Sequence record: PZ496580.1
Reading direction: 5' to 3' (one strand)
DNA from: a phage
DNA: 64,000 nucleotides
Positions within the stretch are counted from its first letter, which is position 1. The number at the start of each line of letters is the position of its first letter. Positions 14,522-64,000 of the stretch are shown in pieces. The position numbers were made by a program, and so were the translations under genes. A model generated the notes under the pieces. It was not told where the DNA came from and searched no databases. It saw only the letters and a program-made list of their open reading frames with translations.

Positions 14522-15109
14522 CTAAATATCTAACCAAGACAAGTCAGATCCGCCCAAGATTTTTTCGACGGCGGATCTATTTTCTTGATGATATAAGTTA
14601 AAACATGGTATCCCATGTCTACGGGCAACATAAACAGCAATTCGAGTCCCGCCAGAAACAATCCCATTAACTTCTTTCGCCCAGAATAACACACAATCTA
14701 CAGGATCATCAAGTGTCTCACCTAAGACTTGAGCAACATTTCTAGAAAACAGATTTTGCATGTATAACGGTATAGAACGAGGATTATCATAAACGTGTTC
14801 TAATTCATCCATCGCCAGATCTTTTTGTTCTAAGGTTTGCCATGCAATCACATCATGACCGTTATGCTTGTGGTCATAAAACTTCCAATTTGGAATGAAA
14901 ATTTTTCTATAATCTGGATCGTAATACTTCATGAAAGCATTGTCCATACCGTAAGCCCCTCCAGAATGCGCTACAACGCGATTTTCTGACAATACCCTCC
15001 CAATGGTACTAGCCATTATCAAAATGTCGCTAGGAGCTTTTCTAGAGCCGATTAAAGCACATCTACGAAGTGGTTTTACTCCAAATAGATCTTGTAACTG
15101 GTCAAACAT
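14522..15109 (-). CDS. DprA/Smf-like (SLOG-fold) Rossmann protein
   Basis: 195 aa; IGSRKAP...HSGGAYGMD and VSGGTRIAVYVA motifs resemble the DprA/LOG nucleotide-binding core; SD GGAGG. Confidence 0.45.
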   Translation of the reverse strand: MFDQLQDLFGVKPLRRCALIGSRKAPSDILIMASTIGRVLSENRVVAHSGGAYGMDNAFMKYYDPDYRKIFIPNWKFYDHKHNGHDVIAWQTLEQKDLAMDELEHVYDNPRSIPLYMQNLFSRNVAQVLGETLDDPVDCVLFWAKEVNGIVSGGTRIAVYVARRHGIPCFNLYHQENRSAVEKILGGSDLSWLDI

Positions 15110-15261
15110 AATATTTCCTCCATAGAAAGCAATATCATACTACAAGTTAATAACAAATACAAGTATCCGCGTAGCGGAAGCGAGCACAGCGAGCAATAAA
15201 ACACTTCCAGTAATTGATTAATAAATGTTCGAAACAAATTTTTATTATTCTATAAGATAAG

Positions 15262-15287
15262 TCTTCGTTTTGATCATAATTTAATCA
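15262..15287. repeat. 26 bp direct repeat copy 1 (TCTTCGTTTTGATCATAATTTAATCA) in a 410 bp non-coding region
   Basis: Identical 26-mer recurs at 15411-15436; both are followed by CACATGTAAA(A)CT. Confidence 0.6.
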
Positions 15288-15410
15288 CACATGTAAAACT
15301 ACACAAAAAGGATATCGCTTCGCGAACTCCTACGGAGTATAACATTTGTGTTACATTATGTGGTGATTAATAATTAATCAAAGATACATTTTCTATGTTC
15401 TAAAGATCTT

Positions 15411-15436
15411 TCTTCGTTTTGATCATAATTTAATCA
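15411..15436. repeat. 26 bp direct repeat copy 2
   Basis: Identical to 15262-15287. Confidence 0.6.
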
Positions 15437-15489
15437 AACAGTATTAATATTGTCCACATGTAAACTAAAATTATGTCAATAATAGATAC

Positions 15490-15513
15490 AAAAAAGCCGC
15501 CCAGAAGGACGGC
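15490..15513 (-). terminator. Rho-independent terminator after ORF 15523-15960
   Basis: Minus-strand hairpin GCCGTCCTTCTGGGCGGC followed by TTTTTT. Confidence 0.55.
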
Positions 15514-15522
15514 TAATGTTAA

Positions 15523-15960
15523 TTATTTGTTGATAACGATCTGATTTCGGCGAATGGTAACATTACTCTTAGAGATGATCAGATCATCCGGCACTACGTT
15601 AGTTTTGTATGGCTGGAAGCGAACAAGCATCTGATTGCGTTTAGACCCTTCCTTAATCTTGATTTCCATCTGGATATTGTTGCCTACGTGAGCAACCGCA
15701 ATTTCACCTTTATTCTCATAGACCCACTTGCTGGTAACGTCGCCAGCAAAAGCCTTAATAACTTGCAATGCTTCGTCGTATGCGGTAGAGCTGTGAACTT
15801 TCAGAAGGCCAGCCGTAGCAAGACGGGAGCAGGTGATCGCCGGAGATTGCCAAACATCAACATTAATTTGCTCAATCAGAGTAACACCGCCCTGATCAAC
15901 TGCTTTGAATGCTTCGAACATTGCTTTTTTCATTGCTACGTGATTTTTACGGAATTTCAT
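15523..15960 (-). CDS. Hypothetical protein (145 aa)
   Basis: ORF with SD GAGGTG; no recognised motif. Confidence 0.5.
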   Translation of the reverse strand: MKFRKNHVAMKKAMFEAFKAVDQGGVTLIEQINVDVWQSPAITCSRLATAGLLKVHSSTAYDEALQVIKAFAGDVTSKWVYENKGEIAVAHVGNNIQMEIKIKEGSKRNQMLVRFQPYKTNVVPDDLIISKSNVTIRRNQIVINK

Positions 15961-16006: not shown

Positions 16007-16282
16007 TTAGGACATTGCCCGTTTGAATGCGTCCATTATAACAGTGTTATTTGGCTTGTCAACACGTTTTTGAACTTTATTTTTAAATTTTTTGTTGATG
16101 TGGTGTTTACGATAAACAACCTTTTCACGGTTGGCGTAAGCCTCTCGTGCATCTTTTACCATCAACCATGCCTTAGCCGCATCTTGTCCGCTGATCCCGC
16201 CAATCTTTTTAGCAATATCAACAAAATTAAGACCGTGGTCTTCACGTAGCATGTAAACCATTAACGCTGTTTTCTTGTCCAT
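16007..16282 (-). CDS. Hypothetical basic protein (91 aa)
   Basis: ATG overlaps stop of the upstream ORF (TGATG coupling); Lys/Arg-rich C-terminus. Confidence 0.4.
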   Translation of the reverse strand: MDKKTALMVYMLREDHGLNFVDIAKKIGGISGQDAAKAWLMVKDAREAYANREKVVYRKHHINKKFKNKVQKRVDKPNNTVIMDAFKRAMS

Positions 16283-16479: not shown

Positions 16480-16624
16480 ACTTCACCTCATACATTCATA
16501 AACACAACAACGAATAGGACAGTAACAGTTATTAAAGCCATTTTCAACCCCATATTCATAATATTTTCCTCATAGGGTAACGCCCTGTTGATGTTTGCCA
16601 TTATAAGCCACTAAATCACACTGT

Positions 16625-16653
16625 CAAGCACTAAAAACAAAAAAGCCACCCCG
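16625..16653 (-). terminator. Rho-independent terminator after the short Hoc paralog
   Basis: Hairpin GCCATCCTTCGGGGTGGC plus T-run on minus strand. Confidence 0.55.
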
Positions 16654-16674
16654 AAGGATGGCTGATAAATTTCA

Positions 16675-17901
16675 TTAAGCAGGAGGCGTTTCACGAATCC
16701 GTAGGACACGCTCTAATGTCTCGCGATCCAGCTTGTGGAACTCTTTGGACTGATACATGAAACCATTGCGAGATTCCATGCAAGTGCAATCACTATATTT
16801 TTCTTCCGCTGCCGCGATTGTCTCCAGATCTTTGGCGTACTTGCTGGTTGAATAAACTTCTCGGTGACGCCACTCTAAACCAGCCTCATTGAATTTAACA
16901 ATCTCGTCAAATACCCACCATCCAATATAGATGAATGAAGTTTTGCGCCACGGGATCGGGTGCACGTAACGGAACATTTTATGAAGAGATTCAACAACTT
17001 CCATTGAACACTTTCTGCTTGTACGTGCTGCAAGTTCTACTGTTGCGTCTTCGATCTGTTGATATAGTTTAGCAACACACCAGAATTTGGCTGTATCATC
17101 GTAAGTAGCACGCTCTTTGAACAGATGACCGTCTGGCATGATAGAAAATCCTTCCAGTGCTTCGCCGACCTCACTACCGATCAGAGTCGGTGACGGTTGC
17201 CCTTCGCGCTGCAAATACCAGTTATGTTTGATCGTCAATTTAGGCATACCGCTAGAATCGCCTACAATGTCCTCTGACACAACATAATTAAGTAAGATCT
17301 CCTTACCTAGTGCTACGGTCTTTGATTCCACCACATCCTGATCTACGCTCATTGTAGCCAGCATGATTTTAGTGGATGCGCTATCGGCTGAATCTTCCGA
17401 TTCGCCCCATACTTTGACAGTATACACGCCGTTGTTATCTGCTGTAAATTCTTGGATCGTGATATCCTGTGTCGTGTCTATAACTTCTTCGCCCTTACTC
17501 CAACTATAATGTAGTTCATAATTGTCTGTTGGAGTCTTCCCGCCAGAAAATTTTACTGTTGCATGTAATTCTACGTCTGTTTGTGTTGGTACGTAGAATT
17601 GCGGCGGTTCGGTGATCTTAACGATTAATTCAGCTTCTTCCATACGGAAAACGTCAGATTCTACCGATTCCCCGCTATCGGTATCTTGCACAGTGACTTT
17701 ATAGTTACCCGCATTTTCACTTGTTGCACCTGCTACAGTTAGCGTAGCGGTGTTATTTTCGTGTGGTTTGTTGTCTTTTGTCCATGTATAGGTCAAATTG
17801 CTGGGTAATGGTTCGTCACCTGCTACCGTCGCTGTTAATGTGAAACCATCTCCAGCAAGAAAACATCTTTTGTCAGATTTAATTGATACTGTGAAAGCCA
17901 T
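16675..17901 (-). CDS. hoc: Hoc-like outer capsid protein (3 Ig-like domains)
   Basis: N-terminus MAFTVSIKSDK resembles T4 Hoc MTFTVDITPK; C-terminal YVHPIPWRKTSFIYIGWWVFDEI...ESRNGF matches the T4 Hoc capsid-binding domain; start placed at second ATG with SD. Confidence 0.8.
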   Translation of the reverse strand: MAFTVSIKSDKRCFLAGDGFTLTATVAGDEPLPSNLTYTWTKDNKPHENNTATLTVAGATSENAGNYKVTVQDTDSGESVESDVFRMEEAELIVKITEPPQFYVPTQTDVELHATVKFSGGKTPTDNYELHYSWSKGEEVIDTTQDITIQEFTADNNGVYTVKVWGESEDSADSASTKIMLATMSVDQDVVESKTVALGKEILLNYVVSEDIVGDSSGMPKLTIKHNWYLQREGQPSPTLIGSEVGEALEGFSIMPDGHLFKERATYDDTAKFWCVAKLYQQIEDATVELAARTSRKCSMEVVESLHKMFRYVHPIPWRKTSFIYIGWWVFDEIVKFNEAGLEWRHREVYSTSKYAKDLETIAAAEEKYSDCTCMESRNGFMYQSKEFHKLDRETLERVLRIRETPPA

Positions 17902-17916
17902 ATAAAGCCACTCCAT

Positions 17917-17940
17917 AGAAAAGCCGCCCCGAAGGACGGC
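17917..17940 (-). terminator. Hairpin terminator after the large Hoc paralog
   Basis: GCCGTCCTTCGGGGCGGC hairpin with short T-run on minus strand. Confidence 0.4.
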
Positions 17941-17950
17941 ATTTAATTAA

Positions 17951-20491
17951 TTAAAATAGTTGAGTACCATCAACCAGATAACCATTACGAGATTCCAATA
18001 CATGAGTATTAGAATAGTGATGCAACGAGGCTGCAATAGTCTCGATCTCGTCCGGGTATTTGGTATGTTCAAAGTCTTCTAACCAGTTAAGCCCTTCTCG
18101 GTTGCAACGATCAATTTCATCAAGTACCCAATAGCCTTGATACTGGAACGAAGTACGACGCCACGGAATCGGGTGTACATAGCGTTTTAATTTCGCGGTA
18201 GTAAACACTACACGAACTTTTTCACTATGTTTAACATGTCCTTCGTCGTCAGTAATTTCTGCATAATAGGTTGCTTGATGTGTCTCCTTGCTAATTTGTT
18301 CTTTAGGAATAGTATACACCTTACTATTAGCACCCTCAATAACAGTATCTTTACCGCCCTGAATTTTATGCCACTTCCATTGAACTTCTTTTTCATCATC
18401 AACGTGTTCGGCATGAGCTTCTAAGGTAATATCCTGTTTCTGTCCTTCTTTAGCAACCACATCCACCGGATGTTTCAGAATATTGATATTTGAATGATGA
18501 GTCATTGTCACTAATGCAGGATTAGATTCAATGGTATTCTCACCAGCCGTAATTACCGCTGTGTAGCTGCCTACGTCAGACGGTTTTGCGTGTTCAATAA
18601 TCAATACATCTGAATTTGCACCAGGAATAATCTCACCGTCTTTTTTCCATTGATATGATGGTTTAATACCAATAGATGTTTGTGCGGCAGCGTGTAACAT
18701 AATTTTTTCATTATATTTCACATGCGCATCTTGTGGGTGAGTTGTGACTGCTAGGTCATTTGGAACAACCGTCACATCGTCGGAGATCAATACCCTAACC
18801 GCCTCTGACATTTTAGAAACTCGATGTTCACCGAATCCAGCCGATACACGGCATGTATAAACGCCAGTAGATGTTAATTGTGCATGGTCTTCGCCGTATA
18901 CGTTTCGTTGTTCAATTCCTGCTGGGAAAAGATCCTCACCATCTTTAAACCAACGGTAGCGAACTGGTAAAGCATCGTTAGACGTTGCTTTGATCGTCAG
19001 CGCCCATTGTCCACCTGAACGAACTTTAACGGCTTTAGGTTGTACAGTGATTTCAAGATTAGCCTTTGAGTTGTCTACCGTCACCTGAACTTCGTTAGAT
19101 TCCTTAGAAATACGATGATTCTGTATACCCATAGAAACCTTACATTTATAACGTCCTTCGTCAGATTTGGCGATTGAAGAGAAATGTAATGTTTTAGCAG
19201 TTTTACCCGGTAATAGTTCATCGTCTTTATACCACTGATAATCAAGTTTATAATGCTCGTAGGTAGTTTCTGCCTCACAAATTAAAGTTTGTGAAGAACT
19301 AACGCGAACGTTATTGATTGCTTGTGGTTGTTTCGTGATTCTAATTTCAGGTGCAGCACCAACTAAAAGATCGGCCTCGTCCGAGTCTGCGACTTGATTG
19401 TCGCCATAAGTGACTTTAGCCTTATATTTCGCCTGATTTAATTCTTGCGTAGCAGGTGTAATATGAAGATCTTTATTTGTTGCGCCAACAATTGGTTTAA
19501 ATTCCGGTTCCCCATTTTTCTTGATGTACCATTGAACTTTTACCGGTTCGTAGTTGGTTGCAAAATCAACACTGAACAAACCTAAAGCACCAGCACCAAC
19601 ATTTATTGTGAGTGGTTGTTTAGTGAAGCGGAAAAACGCTCGTCCTTGTATTGTAACATGACAATCTTTCGAATAGACCGTAGTTTCTGCTTGACGAACT
19701 TCAAGACGCCAAACACCCTCGTCTTTTTTGGTTACATGTGGTATGATCAGTGCGGTCCCGTCTTGTTCCAGCACCATCCTGTCATTATGAATCCACACGT
19801 AAGACAATGGTCGCGTTTTATCGTCTGTCGTGACAGACACTTCAAGATCCAATCGCGTGTCCTCTGCCACTGTAACCGCTGATGGGTAATGTTCCTGAAT
19901 ATGAACTTTAGGAGCATCTTTATTTTGTTCCACTACTACCGGACTGATCCAATAGTGAGAACGTGCATCATCGGTAACAAATACCTTACAAGTATAGTTA
20001 CCAAAATCCTCATAACCAACTCGATCTACATGGACGTTTTTTTCTCTAACTTTATTAGGATCTAACTGAATGTGGTTTTTATACCAAATAGTATCAAATT
20101 GCTTGTTATCTTCGATGAACGGAGTAACAAAAATATCCAATTCTTCGCCTAAACGCTTATAAATGTAGGTCGGAGATTGATCCTGTGGTGCAAGGAAGGT
20201 GCGACGTTCAACAAGAATAGGCTTAATATCAACCGATTCAAGCGGATTATCTTTCAGCTTAACTTTCGCTGTATACGTGCCGAATTGATCTTGAGTCATT
20301 TCAGCAATATACAGAGATTGATCTGGTTCTGCAACCTGATCTGATGGTACGCTTTGACCGTTTAGCTTCCATTCTACGATATAGTCTTTAAAATCTGCGG
20401 TACTTACTACGAGCTTAAGAACAAGTTCATGTCCTACAGACGCGTAGACCGGACCCATAGTTTGATGTAAAATGTTGATTTTATCAGACAT
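17951..20491 (-). CDS. Giant Hoc-like protein with expanded Ig-like array (about 846 aa)
   Basis: Repeated Ig-like segments (recurring W-x-K/R-D/N-G and Y-x-C-x-V patterns) and C-terminal Hoc capsid-binding domain YVHPIPWRRTSFQYQGYWVLDEI...ESRNGY; start at ATG 20491 with SD AGAGGA. Confidence 0.75.
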   Translation of the reverse strand: MSDKINILHQTMGPVYASVGHELVLKLVVSTADFKDYIVEWKLNGQSVPSDQVAEPDQSLYIAEMTQDQFGTYTAKVKLKDNPLESVDIKPILVERRTFLAPQDQSPTYIYKRLGEELDIFVTPFIEDNKQFDTIWYKNHIQLDPNKVREKNVHVDRVGYEDFGNYTCKVFVTDDARSHYWISPVVVEQNKDAPKVHIQEHYPSAVTVAEDTRLDLEVSVTTDDKTRPLSYVWIHNDRMVLEQDGTALIIPHVTKKDEGVWRLEVRQAETTVYSKDCHVTIQGRAFFRFTKQPLTINVGAGALGLFSVDFATNYEPVKVQWYIKKNGEPEFKPIVGATNKDLHITPATQELNQAKYKAKVTYGDNQVADSDEADLLVGAAPEIRITKQPQAINNVRVSSSQTLICEAETTYEHYKLDYQWYKDDELLPGKTAKTLHFSSIAKSDEGRYKCKVSMGIQNHRISKESNEVQVTVDNSKANLEITVQPKAVKVRSGGQWALTIKATSNDALPVRYRWFKDGEDLFPAGIEQRNVYGEDHAQLTSTGVYTCRVSAGFGEHRVSKMSEAVRVLISDDVTVVPNDLAVTTHPQDAHVKYNEKIMLHAAAQTSIGIKPSYQWKKDGEIIPGANSDVLIIEHAKPSDVGSYTAVITAGENTIESNPALVTMTHHSNINILKHPVDVVAKEGQKQDITLEAHAEHVDDEKEVQWKWHKIQGGKDTVIEGANSKVYTIPKEQISKETHQATYYAEITDDEGHVKHSEKVRVVFTTAKLKRYVHPIPWRRTSFQYQGYWVLDEIDRCNREGLNWLEDFEHTKYPDEIETIAASLHHYSNTHVLESRNGYLVDGTQLF

Positions 20492-20568
20492 GTAATATCC
20501 TCTTTTTAATTGCATAACGGAACTACAATTAAAAACATAACAAATATTTCACAACTTTTACGCTCTTA

Positions 20569-62385: not shown

Positions 62386-64000
62386 ATGGCAGATTTTTCT
62401 CAACATTTCAAGGCCACATTTGGCTTTGACGCTGGTAATGAAAAGGTCGTCAATGTAGCATTGGCTGATAAGAATGTCAACACCGATGCGGTCAACGTTG
62501 AATTTTTCAATTACCATAATGGTATTACTCAGTATGACACAACTCGCGGTTATGATCAATACGGAACTACAATCTATCAAAACCGCCCGTATTATGCAAA
62601 AGAAGATATCACAAAGCCAGCAGGTGATTTTGACCCGACTAAATGGCAAGCACTGCGCACGGACCCACGTTGGGATTATATTGCAGCAACTTCCGGTGAT
62701 ACTCCTTTAAAGTCTGGTGATTATATCGCAGCAGATGGTCAATTTGCAAACTTGACTTTCTCTATGCCAAATAAACCAGCAGAGGGAGACACTATAACAG
62801 TAAAAGATATCGGTGGCAAGTGTGGTGTTAACGAATTATCGTTCTTGAGTTCAGGACATGAGTTTTACCATAACGGTAATGTGTATAACCGCAAATGGTA
62901 TTGCACTACCCCGTATGCAATGAACTATTTCATCTTTGTTCGTAATCGTTGGCATGTTTATCAGACGGGAACAGAGCCACGCGGTGTGTACGCACAACCA
63001 GCGATTGATGCTATTCAAATGCAGAATGGTGATCAGGTATTTCGTCGTAGTTCGTTGGGTAATATTACCTTAGTGCTTCCTAAGTTTGCCAACAATGGCG
63101 ACATGATCCAAACTACAGATCTTGACGGGTTAACCGCAACCAACCACGTTACGGTTAAAGTTCATGAGCACGCAGAAGAACAATCAATTGGCACGTTCGG
63201 TCTAAAAGAGATTATCGGTAAGCGTAGCGGTCATGGTGTATTCATCTTTGACAAGCCGGAAAACTTATGGCGTGTGTGGGATGGTGATCAGTCTGTTCGT
63301 CTTAAACCGATCATCGATGACACTCGCTTGCAACCTAATAGCTATGTTGCTGTATTTGGTGATCATGATGTTACTCTGACGCTGCCGACCAATGTCGAGC
63401 CGGGTGATCGTATTCAAGTTTCTATGCAGTATATGCACGGAAACCAGAATTGCCGTATTATCACCGCCGCAGAGGATACAAAAATCCTTATGCAGAAAAA
63501 TATGGTTCAGTTTCCTAAGCGTAGCGAGTACCCATTCAACGGGACCGAGACATGGAAGGAAGTGTCTGAATTGTCGTTCAATGCGGCTAGTGATTATGTA
63601 CCTTATCTGGAGTTCTCTTATTCAGAAGGTGATGATGGTAAGAAACATTGGCTGGTAGCACACTCTCATCCGATCGTCGAACGAGTAGACCCTACTCGTA
63701 AAGAGCGTGTTGGTGTAATTGCACTGGCTACCCAGACTGAAACGAATAAAAACCATGAAGAGAATCCTAGCGACGAAGTTGCAGTAACACCAAAAATGCT
63801 GGCTAATAAAACCGCCAACGAAACTCGACGCGGTATTGCTCGTATTGCTACTCAGGCGGAAACGCATCAAGATACTGGTTCCAGCTTCCTGGATGATGTT
63901 ATCGTTACACCTAAAAAGTTAAATGACTGTGTTGCTACCGAAGCCCGTCGTGGTGTGATGGAAATTGCAACCCAGCACGAAACCAATGAAGGTTTAGATG
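62386..64000 (+). CDS. 34: Long tail fibre proximal subunit (gp34), 3' end outside window
   Basis: KVVNVALADKNV, FPKRSEYP, ERVDPTRKERVGVIALATQ, ETRRGIARIATQ, TPKKLND match T4 gp34; no stop before window end. Confidence 0.85.
   Translation, partial: MADFSQHFKATFGFDAGNEKVVNVALADKNVNTDAVNVEFFNYHNGITQYDTTRGYDQYGTTIYQNRPYYAKEDITKPAGDFDPTKWQALRTDPRWDYIAATSGDTPLKSGDYIAADGQFANLTFSMPNKPAEGDTITVKDIGGKCGVNELSFLSSGHEFYHNGNVYNRKWYCTTPYAMNYFIFVRNRWHVYQTGTEPRGVYAQPAIDAIQMQNGDQVFRRSSLGNITLVLPKFANNGDMIQTTDLDGLTATNHVTVKVHEHAEEQSIGTFGLKEIIGKRSGHGVFIFDKPENLWRVWDGDQSVRLKPIIDDTRLQPNSYVAVFGDHDVTLTLPTNVEPGDRIQVSMQYMHGNQNCRIITAAEDTKILMQKNMVQFPKRSEYPFNGTETWKEVSELSFNAASDYVPYLEFSYSEGDDGKKHWLVAHSHPIVERVDPTRKERVGVIALATQTETNKNHEENPSDEVAVTPKMLANKTANETRRGIARIATQAETHQDTGSSFLDDVIVTPKKLNDCVATEARRGVMEIATQHETNEGLD

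Follow-up and report, generated by a model that had tools for sequence, protein, structure and literature searches.

The locus considered here lies within a 64,000-nucleotide stretch of phage DNA (sequence record PZ496580.1; hereafter the window) that belongs to a Krischvirus coliphage of the RB49/phi1/JSE group, and it comprises a gene for a DprA-like protein and an adjoining non-coding gap that holds a tandem pair of promoter-like units, here termed cassettes A and B. The 2.5 kb around the locus are 95-99% identical in 58 of 59 Krischvirus phage records (including RB49, phi1, JSE and ECD7) and 90-95% identical in the remaining one. On the plus strand a gene 23-like gene precedes gene 24; there follow, all on the minus strand, the 195-aa DprA-like open reading frame (ORF; 14522-15109, the equivalent of RB49ORF164c), a gap of 413 bp (15110-15522), a 145-aa ORF (15523-15960, the equivalent of RB49ORF165c), a DUF2774 (gp24.3-like) ORF, the Hoc-like genes and inh. 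The stop codon of the DprA-like gene directly abuts that of gene 24, which encodes a Gp23-family vertex protein.

The gap is the second-longest stretch of the window that lacks an ORF of at least 60 aa, and only two ORFs of at least 20 aa lie wholly within it, one per strand and 23 aa each. Its GC content falls to 29%, compared with 41% for the window, in agreement with the AT-rich non-coding stretch of about 410 bp that an earlier note, made from the sequence alone, had described. A small conserved ORF was rejected, as the minus-strand 23-aa ORF is not in frame in relatives, whose indels are not multiples of three; a late promoter was likewise rejected, as no TATAAATA is present in the gap. 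ARAGORN detected no tRNA or tmRNA in the window. Read along the minus strand, the gap is composed of the terminator of the 145-aa gene, cassette B, a tail of two hairpins, cassette A, a GCTCGCTGTGCTCGC block, mini-hairpin A and the signals of the DprA-like gene (TTGTAT-17-TATGAT, GGAGG and ATG).

The two identical 26-bp direct repeats that had been reported at 15262-15287 and 15411-15436 were recovered by a repeat search: the 26-mer TCTTCGTTTTGATCATAATTTAATCA occurs exactly twice, is found nowhere else in the 64 kb even when three mismatches are allowed, and gave no match in any of 100 shuffled sequences. The first copy covers the palindrome, the -35 zone and the spacer of cassette A. The repeat unit is in fact about 77 nt long, with 79% identity over a 77-78-nt match and a spacing of 149 bp, and represents a tandem duplication. 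The motif CACATGTAAA, which was thought to follow each repeat, does stand directly after copy 1 (15288-15297, plus strand; motif family D7), just upstream of cassette A, where it reads TTTACATGTG on the minus strand, but comparison of the repeats places it after copy 2 only beyond an insertion of 18 nt (15455-15464, plus strand).

The cassette, about 75 bp long with an added tail and with the 26-bp repeat as its core, shows on the minus strand a 7-5-7 palindrome (TTGATTA-N5-TGATCAA) within which a weak -35 falls, then a conserved spacer of 17-18 bp, a TAGAAT/TATAAT -10, a stretch extremely rich in AT, a pair of GC mini-hairpins and finally a run of T. Cassette B, the distal copy (15363-15437; profile R1, 54.2 bits, E 9e-16), carries TTGATTA-N5-TGATCAA, with TGATCA (15425-15420) 17 bp from TAGAAC (15402-15397); it also contains a perfect palindrome, TGATTAAT-N-ATTAATCA, at 15364-15380 and, on the plus strand, TTGATC (15419-15424) 17 bp from TATTAA (15442-15447). 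Its tail (15305-15337, minus strand) is made up of CTCC-GTA-GGAG (15337-15327), TCGC-GAA-GCGA (15325-15315) and TTTTT (15309-15305). Cassette A, the proximal copy (15214-15287, minus strand; profile R1, 50.6 bits, E 1e-14), carries GTGATTA-N5-TGATCAA, with TGATCA (15276-15271) 18 bp from TAGAAT (15252-15247), and about 40 bp of very AT-rich DNA. It is followed on the same strand by the GCTCGCTGTGCTCGC block (15180-15194), which is conserved in the alignment of relatives and resembles GCTCGCTTCGCTCAC blocks in the relative L010 and in the E. coli prophage region L022, and by mini-hairpin A, TCCGC-TAC-GCGGA (15166-15178), with T-rich DNA behind it; this last element gave a terminator-like match, has covarying orthologues, and is a putative stop or insulator just upstream of the -35 of the DprA-like gene. 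Scanned with the unit profile, the window yields two copies and no more, both with E < 1e-13. A dispersed regulon in the window was rejected, the palindromes and the unit profile being confined to this locus in the 64 kb, and the other places returned by BLAST in the window are merely a common terminator hairpin.

Alignment of 14 units, together with a scan of all loci for sigma-70 geometry, revealed two promoter-like arrangements on one -35 zone. Two palindrome types of 17-19 bp flank the -10 about 56 bp apart. The sense arrangement, (A)TGATCA-16/17-TATAAT, is perfect in the relatives L006, L009 and L010; its -10 reads TAGAAC in cassette B, and cassette A has TAGAAT, as do the extra copies described below. 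The antisense arrangement, TTGATG/C-16/17-TATAAT, matches 10 of 12 consensus positions in L004, L018, L021 and L010; the versions of the window are degraded, cassette A having TAAAAC and cassette B TATTAA. Overall, the sense and antisense sites of relatives attain 9-10 of 12 consensus matches.

Nearest-neighbour energies single out the cassettes as the least stable DNA of the 64-kb window over lengths of 100, 200 and 400 bp. The least stable 100 bp lie at 15351-15450, while the least stable 50 bp of the gap, second in the whole window, lie at 15211-15260; the roughly 45 bp downstream of the sense -10 have a GC content, counted from the sequence, of about 15-20%.

The relatives with which the locus was compared are syntenic metagenomic loci recovered by exact-protein look-ups and pattern scans, whose DprA-like and 145-aa proteins share 92%, 83-92%, about 69%, 53-57% and 46-59% identity with those of the window. 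In each of them the gap is retained, at 326-574 bp, and harbours the unit in two or three copies; that of L004 also has a 160-bp insertion. Compared with L006, the gap is about 62% identical, equal to the coding flanks, shuffled sequence giving about 50% under the same alignment. The conserved blocks are TTGaTTAAA..ATGATCAAA(A)CG, ATCTyTATA/TAGAAT, the GCGAAGC mini-hairpin, a GCTCGC block and TTGrTTAATwATTAAyCA, in which the window and L006 agree at all 18 nt. Within the genus, as judged from nine sequences (Krischvirus genomes and the close relative L005), variable positions amount to 2.7% (2/74) in cassette A and 6.7% in cassette B, as against 11% in the 145-aa ORF and 16% in the linker at 15438-15494.

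The hairpins have changed in sequence and retained their pairing. Variants of hairpin A include TCCGC/GCGGA, TCGGC/GCCGA, CCCGC/GCGGG, ACCGC/GCGGT, ATACGC/GCGTAT and TTGCAGC/GCTGCAA, and in at least six variants of the mini-hairpins pairing is held through changes on both sides. GCGAAGC is present in seven of the eight aligned B-type tails and is replaced by GCGTAGC in L008, and its flanking pairs covary (TCGC/GCGA, ATGC/GCAT, GTTGC/GCAAC); the cassette tails are also conserved between orthologous copies across lineages. Because the hairpins keep pairing through two-sided changes and the cassettes are less variable than the neighbouring ORF, sequence comparison indicates that the cassettes are under purifying selection and are not debris. 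The nearly invariant heptamer, as d(GCGAAGC), forms a famously stable DNA mini-hairpin, and this stability might hint at a role involving single-stranded DNA; the copy near gene 3, however, has an AAA loop. Mimicry of a CRISPR repeat by hairpin A was rejected, as its stem sequence and loop orientation vary freely between lineages. Five metagenomic contigs (L007, L008, L019, L020 and L021) begin or end within this intergenic region, which is consistent with assemblies breaking at direct repeats. Anyone working on Krischvirus genomes should be aware that the exact 26-bp repeats offer substrates for recombination and points at which assemblies break.

Copies of the cassette are not restricted to the window. 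A search of the prophage region against phages and a strict core pattern in IMG/VR revealed further copies in Krischvirus genomes, which brings the number to about four per genome at three loci, namely the tandem pair at gene 24/hoc, a copy at genes 35/36 and a copy at gene 3, all oriented like their flanking genes. The copy between the tail-fibre genes 35 and 36 (L023 2920-3121, Krischvirus KFS-EC) is arranged as terminator, cassette, TGCC-TAC-GGCA, TCGC-GAA-GCGA, late promoter TATAAATA and gene 36. The copy between gene 3 and a divergent 84-aa ORF (L054 2094-2283, Krischvirus ECD7) is almost identical to it; its sense side enters the gene 3-1-57A cluster, and its antisense TTGGTT-17-TATATT faces the 84-aa ORF, a real ORF with its own Shine-Dalgarno sequence. 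In E. coli, BLAST of the gap found one place of about 75 bp (about 80% identity, E 4e-8) in 54 of 5426 genomes, in prophage regions, and about 22 prophage-sized IMG/VR contigs (17-45 kb) have one cassette copy each; the strict core pattern gave no match among genomes taken one per species. The copy in the E. coli C325 prophage is located in a non-coding region of 1.3 kb (L022 4926-6229; NZ_CP124819.1 851114-852417), together with at least nine CCTACAC direct repeats about 400 bp from the cassette, a perfect TTGATTAATTATTAATC palindrome, blocks of the GCTCGC type and numerous GC mini-hairpins whose loops are GNA or UUCG. By its sequence this region looks like an origin or control region; the proteins that flank it gave no family or structure match pointing to a replication module.

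We propose, with a probability of roughly 0.4, that the locus is best explained overall by a DprA-type gene and factor-controlled promoter cassettes with short non-coding transcripts. The narrower proposition that the repeat unit is a non-coding promoter cassette appears probable from its layout. The palindrome and the spacer would be read by some factor that compensates or controls the weak -35, and the cassette would thus behave as a factor-dependent, partly bidirectional promoter of the sigma-70 type. A short non-coding transcript of about 60-100 nt would be launched into easily melted AT-rich DNA, and the mini-hairpins would limit read-through, with transcription stopped before the next gene. 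Promoter activity, transcript ends, factor binding and the biological role of the cassettes are in this respect what we infer from the sequence. Should the unit be a promoter cassette, its purpose may be the opening or priming of DNA in cis, as at T4 oriF and oriG, which we advance only tentatively; the production of a small RNA acting in trans is a slightly less likely purpose, and local regulation or insulation of the downstream genes less likely again. The earlier note had viewed the repeats as regulator-binding sites or origin-like elements. This view gains from the palindromic, promoter-like build of the cassettes, from purifying selection and from their being the least stable DNA of the window, and it loses from a turn of GC skew that lies elsewhere and from the lack of classical iterons. 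A true promoter class with its own factor would fill the missing "middle" transcription mode of RB49-like phages.

Several observations weigh against this proposal. The hexamers of the window are weak: a consensus scan omits both proposed cassette promoters, the final T is missing from TAGAAC and from TATTAA, and TGATCA agrees with the consensus at only three of six positions. The early-promoter hidden Markov model that Nolan et al. applied to RB49 reports nothing at the tandem pair or at the gene-3 copy. The conservation of the spacer and of the sequence ahead of the -35 exceeds the needs of a plain promoter, and something else may therefore be read at the cassette. The mini-hairpins, with stems of 4-5 bp, triloops and energies of -5 to -12 kcal/mol for whole tails, are weak as RNA terminators, and the gene-3 copy has no clear T-run. 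At short range the gap evolves faster than its surroundings, with 66% nucleotide identity to L018 compared with 84-85% for the coding flanks. GC skew turns at the junction of gene 24 and the DprA-like gene and not at the repeats, where it gives no origin signal. RNAalifold found no conserved RNA structure in the cassette core, and the core is on that account more likely to be a signal at the DNA level. The literature searched contained no transcript, transcription-start or origin data for Krischvirus, and no description of the cassette.

The boxes of FNR, CRP, LexA, ArgR, Fur and ArcA have spacings that do not seem to fit the cassette. The published RB49 early-promoter prediction Pe:60244 was considered as the gene-3 copy and rejected, as the RB49 coordinates do not fit. 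A middle promoter in the style of T4 was rejected too, RB49 being devoid of MotA and of middle promoters (PMC1524935).

Among the other explanations, the one that fares best holds that the cassettes are genes for small RNAs acting in trans, each giving an RNA of 60-100 nt that ends at the mini-hairpins and U-run and pairs with mRNAs of phage or host. A self-contained promoter-like site with hairpins and T-run, found in the tandem copies and in the 35/36 copy, would suit such a gene, as would the covarying hairpins, the tails conserved between orthologous copies across lineages and the almost identical RNA bodies predicted for the gene-3 and 35/36 copies. The bodies predicted for A, B and the 35/36-type copies nevertheless differ strongly, and the most conserved part is the untranscribed one upstream. 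The terminator hairpins are weak, and the core is without a consensus RNA structure, as noted above. Rfam gave no family match, neither in E-value mode on the locus nor in gathering mode on the window, only MicX and SorY matches at chance level on the terminator; no complementarity target turned up, although no target prediction was made. Small-RNA genes are on this evidence an unlikely explanation.

A still more doubtful explanation is that the repeats are operators, at which the 145-aa protein or the DUF2774 protein would bind the palindromes around the -10 and control the DprA-like gene, gene 36 and gene 3. The model of the 145-aa protein is winged-helix-like, its fold match having a weak score, and the ORF is always found beside the cassette pair; the closest structures in BFVD belong to uncharacterised small proteins from other phages of the T4 type, among them a protein named 24.3. 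Operators would agree with this co-occurrence, with the two palindrome types of 17-19 bp spaced about 56 bp around the -10, with conservation beyond the needs of a promoter and with the perfect TGATTAAT-N-ATTAATCA, which is identical in the window and L006 in a gap that is only about 62% identical overall. On the other hand, E. coli prophages possess the cassette, whereas a homologue of the 145-aa protein was not seen nearby in the one prophage examined (L022) and none came to light beyond the Krischvirus lineage. The prophage, 35/36 and gene-3 copies have not retained the second palindrome, both half-sites change together within one genome (TTGATTA..TGATCAA versus TTGGTTA..TAACCAA), which would be odd for a single protein, and the DprA-like gene has a promoter-like site of its own downstream of the hairpin.

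That the gap is functionless debris, a duplicated and cargo-less remnant of a promoter-early stem-loop (PeSL) cassette left after the loss of rnlB or of an ORFan, is improbable. The cassette cores are kept where the flanking proteins are only 46-59% identical and synonymous sites are presumably saturated, and within the genus the neighbouring ORF varies more than the cassettes do. A very high recombination rate is expected of T4-type phages, and the direct repeats persist despite it. Further copies reside among core late genes as well as in prophages of E. coli; the hexamers are not of the sigma-70 consensus, nor are the stems of the GGGG/CCCC type that defines PeSLs. What speaks for debris is the plasticity of the locus, with Rnl2 present in Jiaodavirus-like relatives and absent here, a copy number of two or three and the 160-bp insertion in L004, as well as the PeSL-like order of hairpin and promoter before the DprA-like gene and the PeSL-mediated deletions documented in RB49 and phi1 (PMC2839356). 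Least probable by far is a classical iteron origin with the 145-aa winged-helix-like protein as Rep-type initiator on the direct repeats, as in plasmids or as proposed for T4 oriE with RepEA/RepEB: a gene does lie beside direct repeats and AT-rich DNA, and the prophage copy is situated about 400 bp from its CCTACAC repeats, but there are only two repeats 149 bp apart in place of phased iterons of 17-22 bp, each of the other copies stands alone and at a distance from the 145-aa gene, BFVD links that protein to small uncharacterised T4-type proteins, and GC skew gives no signal at the repeats.

The DprA-like gene, the second component of the proposed explanation, encodes a protein that the earlier note had described as a 195-aa DprA/SLOG-like protein with the motifs IGSRKAP, SGGAYGMD and VSGGTRIAVYVA. 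These motifs are present, and profile searches do find the kinship. The protein gives a full-length match to the profile of PHROG 768, "DprA-like DNA recombination-mediator protein" (E 2.3e-60, residues 15-187 against positions 4-181 of 191). PF02481 (DNA_processg_A) scores 22.3 bits, below its curated cut-off of 29.6, and is the sole Pfam family matched by all seven sequences (the protein of the window and six relatives), with a best E-value of 4.6e-6 and all checked scores below the cut-off; TIGR00732 (dprA), at 14.3 against a cut-off of 191, is far under. A profile of the seven sequences searched against the PDB retrieved H. pylori DprA at E 0.002, with IGSRK aligned to IGTRR and SGGAxGMD to SGGALGVD. 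The AlphaFold2 model (predicted local distance difference test 86, predicted template-modelling score 0.84) has HpDprA as its top Foldseek match in the PDB (E 1.6e-5, probability 1.0, template-modelling score 0.54), followed by ShosA and SpDprA, with LOG (E of at least 1e-3) and molybdenum-cofactor carrier protein structures ranking below DprA. None of the seven members has a Pfam match to LOG (Lysine_decarbox) or to any family besides PF02481, and neither a LOG profile match nor PGGxGTxxE was found. Sequence profiles and the structural model thus place the protein in the DprA branch of the SLOG fold and not with LOG.

The residues R23, G50, G51, A52, G54 and D56 are invariant in an alignment (A3), and IGSRK and SGGAYGMD correspond to the G-S/T-R arginine and the SGGAxGxD loop, which in DprA are elements that bind single-stranded DNA. 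By homology, it would most likely be a binder of single-stranded DNA that acts together with a recombinase. PADLOC returned weak matches to the DprA-like antitoxins PsyrA and ShosA; a role as antitoxin mimic is a lead only. ShosA, which binds both single-stranded DNA and RecA, stimulates short-repeat recombination (PMC12961424, PMC11961720). DprA, ShosA and PsyrA share with the phage protein the Rossmann/SLOG fold and the two motifs. The phage protein differs from DprA in that its 195 aa form a single Rossmann-core domain, without the N-terminal SAM or the C-terminal DML1/winged-helix domain, in that it scores below the Pfam and TIGRFAM cut-offs with a Foldseek template-modelling score of about 0.5, and in that it is encoded by a virulent phage already equipped with recombination functions of the UvsX/UvsY type, its function being assigned by homology only. 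The gene is already known, being named in RefSeq (JSE, KFS-EC) and in PHROGs, and tblastn detects homologues in 1272 phage records of many genera; several phage records call the ORF RNA ligase, apparently through annotation transfer. It consequently adds little as another member of a large named phage family, the leads being its coupling with RNA ligase 2 in sister genera and its resemblance to ShosA and PsyrA.

In Jiaodavirus-like metagenomic loci, the DprA-like gene starts on the stop codon of a true Rnl2 gene (RNA_ligase + T4_Rnl2_C), beside gene 24 and without a long gap; in one of them (L013 491-2046) it overlaps the stop of rnlB, the gene for RNA ligase 2. This order suggests that the two genes form an operon and that a functional link is possible. 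Because Rnl2 stands there by the gene 24 region with no long gap, the Krischvirus arrangement looks like the same block minus rnlB, and the idea that the gap occupies the place where T4 carries rnlB finds support in this synteny. The DprA-like ORF of a close relative (L012 1501-2102, metagenome OQVL01003522.1; 97% identity over residues 1-61) is broken into pieces of 70 and 131 aa, and the gene may be dispensable. Its expression signals in the window are a Shine-Dalgarno sequence, GGAGG (15117-15121, minus strand), which most of the aligned relatives match with an SD-like GAGG core ahead of the start codon, and a promoter-like site, TTGTAT-17-TATGAT (15134-15162, minus strand). The latter stands directly behind mini-hairpin A, an arrangement kept in relatives, where the site occupies an equal position as TTGTTT-17-TATAAT (L018), TTGATT-17-TATAGT (L006) or TTGTGT-17-TATAAT (L008); only 2 of 67 positions of this region vary within the genus. 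A hairpin, GATCCGCC...GGCGGATC followed by TATTTT (14548-14584, plus strand), lies within the 3' coding end of the DprA-like ORF and probably serves to terminate transcription of gene 24, which converges on it.

On the other side of the gap, the 145-aa gene ends at an intrinsic terminator, AGCCGTCC-TTCT-GGGCGGCT with T6 (15489-15514, minus strand), identified by a terminator scan and backed by compensatory changes in relatives; a terminator was also predicted there in RB49, at 97821-97838 (Nolan et al. 2006). It is the only stem-loop of the strong type in the gap, the stems of the cassette mini-hairpins being of 4-5 bp. Upstream of the 145-aa gene there is a perfect TTGACA-16-TATAAT with extended TG (16035-16062, minus strand), a typical RB49 early promoter of the PeSL type, which is presumably the site that Nolan et al. 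predicted as an early promoter at 98352-98401 in RB49. Farther along are two tandem Hoc-like genes with Ig domains (16675-17916 and 17951-20515, minus strand; 413 and 854 aa) that have a common C-terminal module, YVHPIPWR(K/R)TSF...GWWV.DEI. One and the same terminator hairpin sequence recurs after both of them (16622-16666 and 17919-17940) and after the 145-aa gene. The longest stretch of the window without an ORF of at least 60 aa, 681 bp at 62711-63391, has no Rfam, tRNA or cassette-profile match.

The cassette is the more useful result of this analysis, being short, strongly conserved, gene-less and present in about four copies per genome in a therapeutic-phage genus as well as in E. coli prophages, and it can be set against three known systems. 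The PeSL cassettes of RB49 and phi1 have TTGACA/TATAAT hexamers and polyG/polyC stems, stand directly before an ORF(an) and number about 50 per genome (Arbiol et al. 2010, PMC2839356). Both are small intergenic modules of promoter and stem-loop, repeated in the genome and found in the same phage group, and a hairpin just upstream of the -35 is seen in PeSLs as before the DprA-like gene. The present cassettes differ in their weak hexamers, conserved palindrome and spacer, triloop mini-hairpins and few copies, and in forming a tandem pair without a cargo ORF, B being followed by A and A by a hairpin and a separate promoter. Membership among the PeSLs was rejected, as the units have neither consensus hexamers (relatives reach 9-10 of 12) nor a position before an ORF with Shine-Dalgarno sequence and ATG.

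The second system is the T4 origin oriE, which lies near gene 5 on the T4 map. Vaiskunaite and colleagues reportedly described in 1999 an early promoter of oriE and two-way transcription of its region. The likeness consists of direct repeats beside small phage genes, an implicated early promoter and transcription in both directions of the oriE region (PMC3016281); the difference is that the repeats of oriE (the RepEA/RepEB system) are 12 nt long and clustered at even spacing, as against two 26-bp cores in units of about 150 bp here. The three cassette loci (gene 3/2, gene 24/hoc and genes 35/36) parallel T4 oriE, oriF and oriG only weakly, with about a one-in-ten chance of coincidence by a rough estimate.

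The third and closest comparison is with T4 oriF [ori(uvsY)] and oriG [ori(34)], modules of about 100 bp in which an activator-dependent promoter is followed by an A+T-rich unwinding element (PMC3016281). The origin that the earlier note had placed near gene 32 is not there, oriG being ori(34) (PMC3016281). It can be hypothesised that the cassettes, as palindrome-controlled promoters with an unwinding element, are R-loop replication origins of Krischvirus-type phages, a module shared with a family of E. coli prophages, where it would fire towards the iteron cluster, and hence a mobile unit, origin or primer-promoter, that passes between virulent and temperate phages; we regard this as rather unlikely. 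Since RB49 lacks MotA and middle promoters, origins of the RB49 type must be built differently from those of T4. If the cassette were a true origin module, origin usage in relatives beyond T4 itself, listed as open by a review of T4 replication (PMC3016281), would become directly testable. The cassettes have no sequence similarity to the T4 origins and no MotA box, their positions are near but not identical, and they bear extra conserved hairpins and palindromes. In layout they would resemble oriF and oriG, a putative promoter being combined within about 100 bp with downstream DNA of low stability; they also resemble them in being dispersed as several copies through late-gene regions, and in the placing of one Krischvirus copy beside the gene 34-35 block and of another a few kb from uvsW/uvsY.

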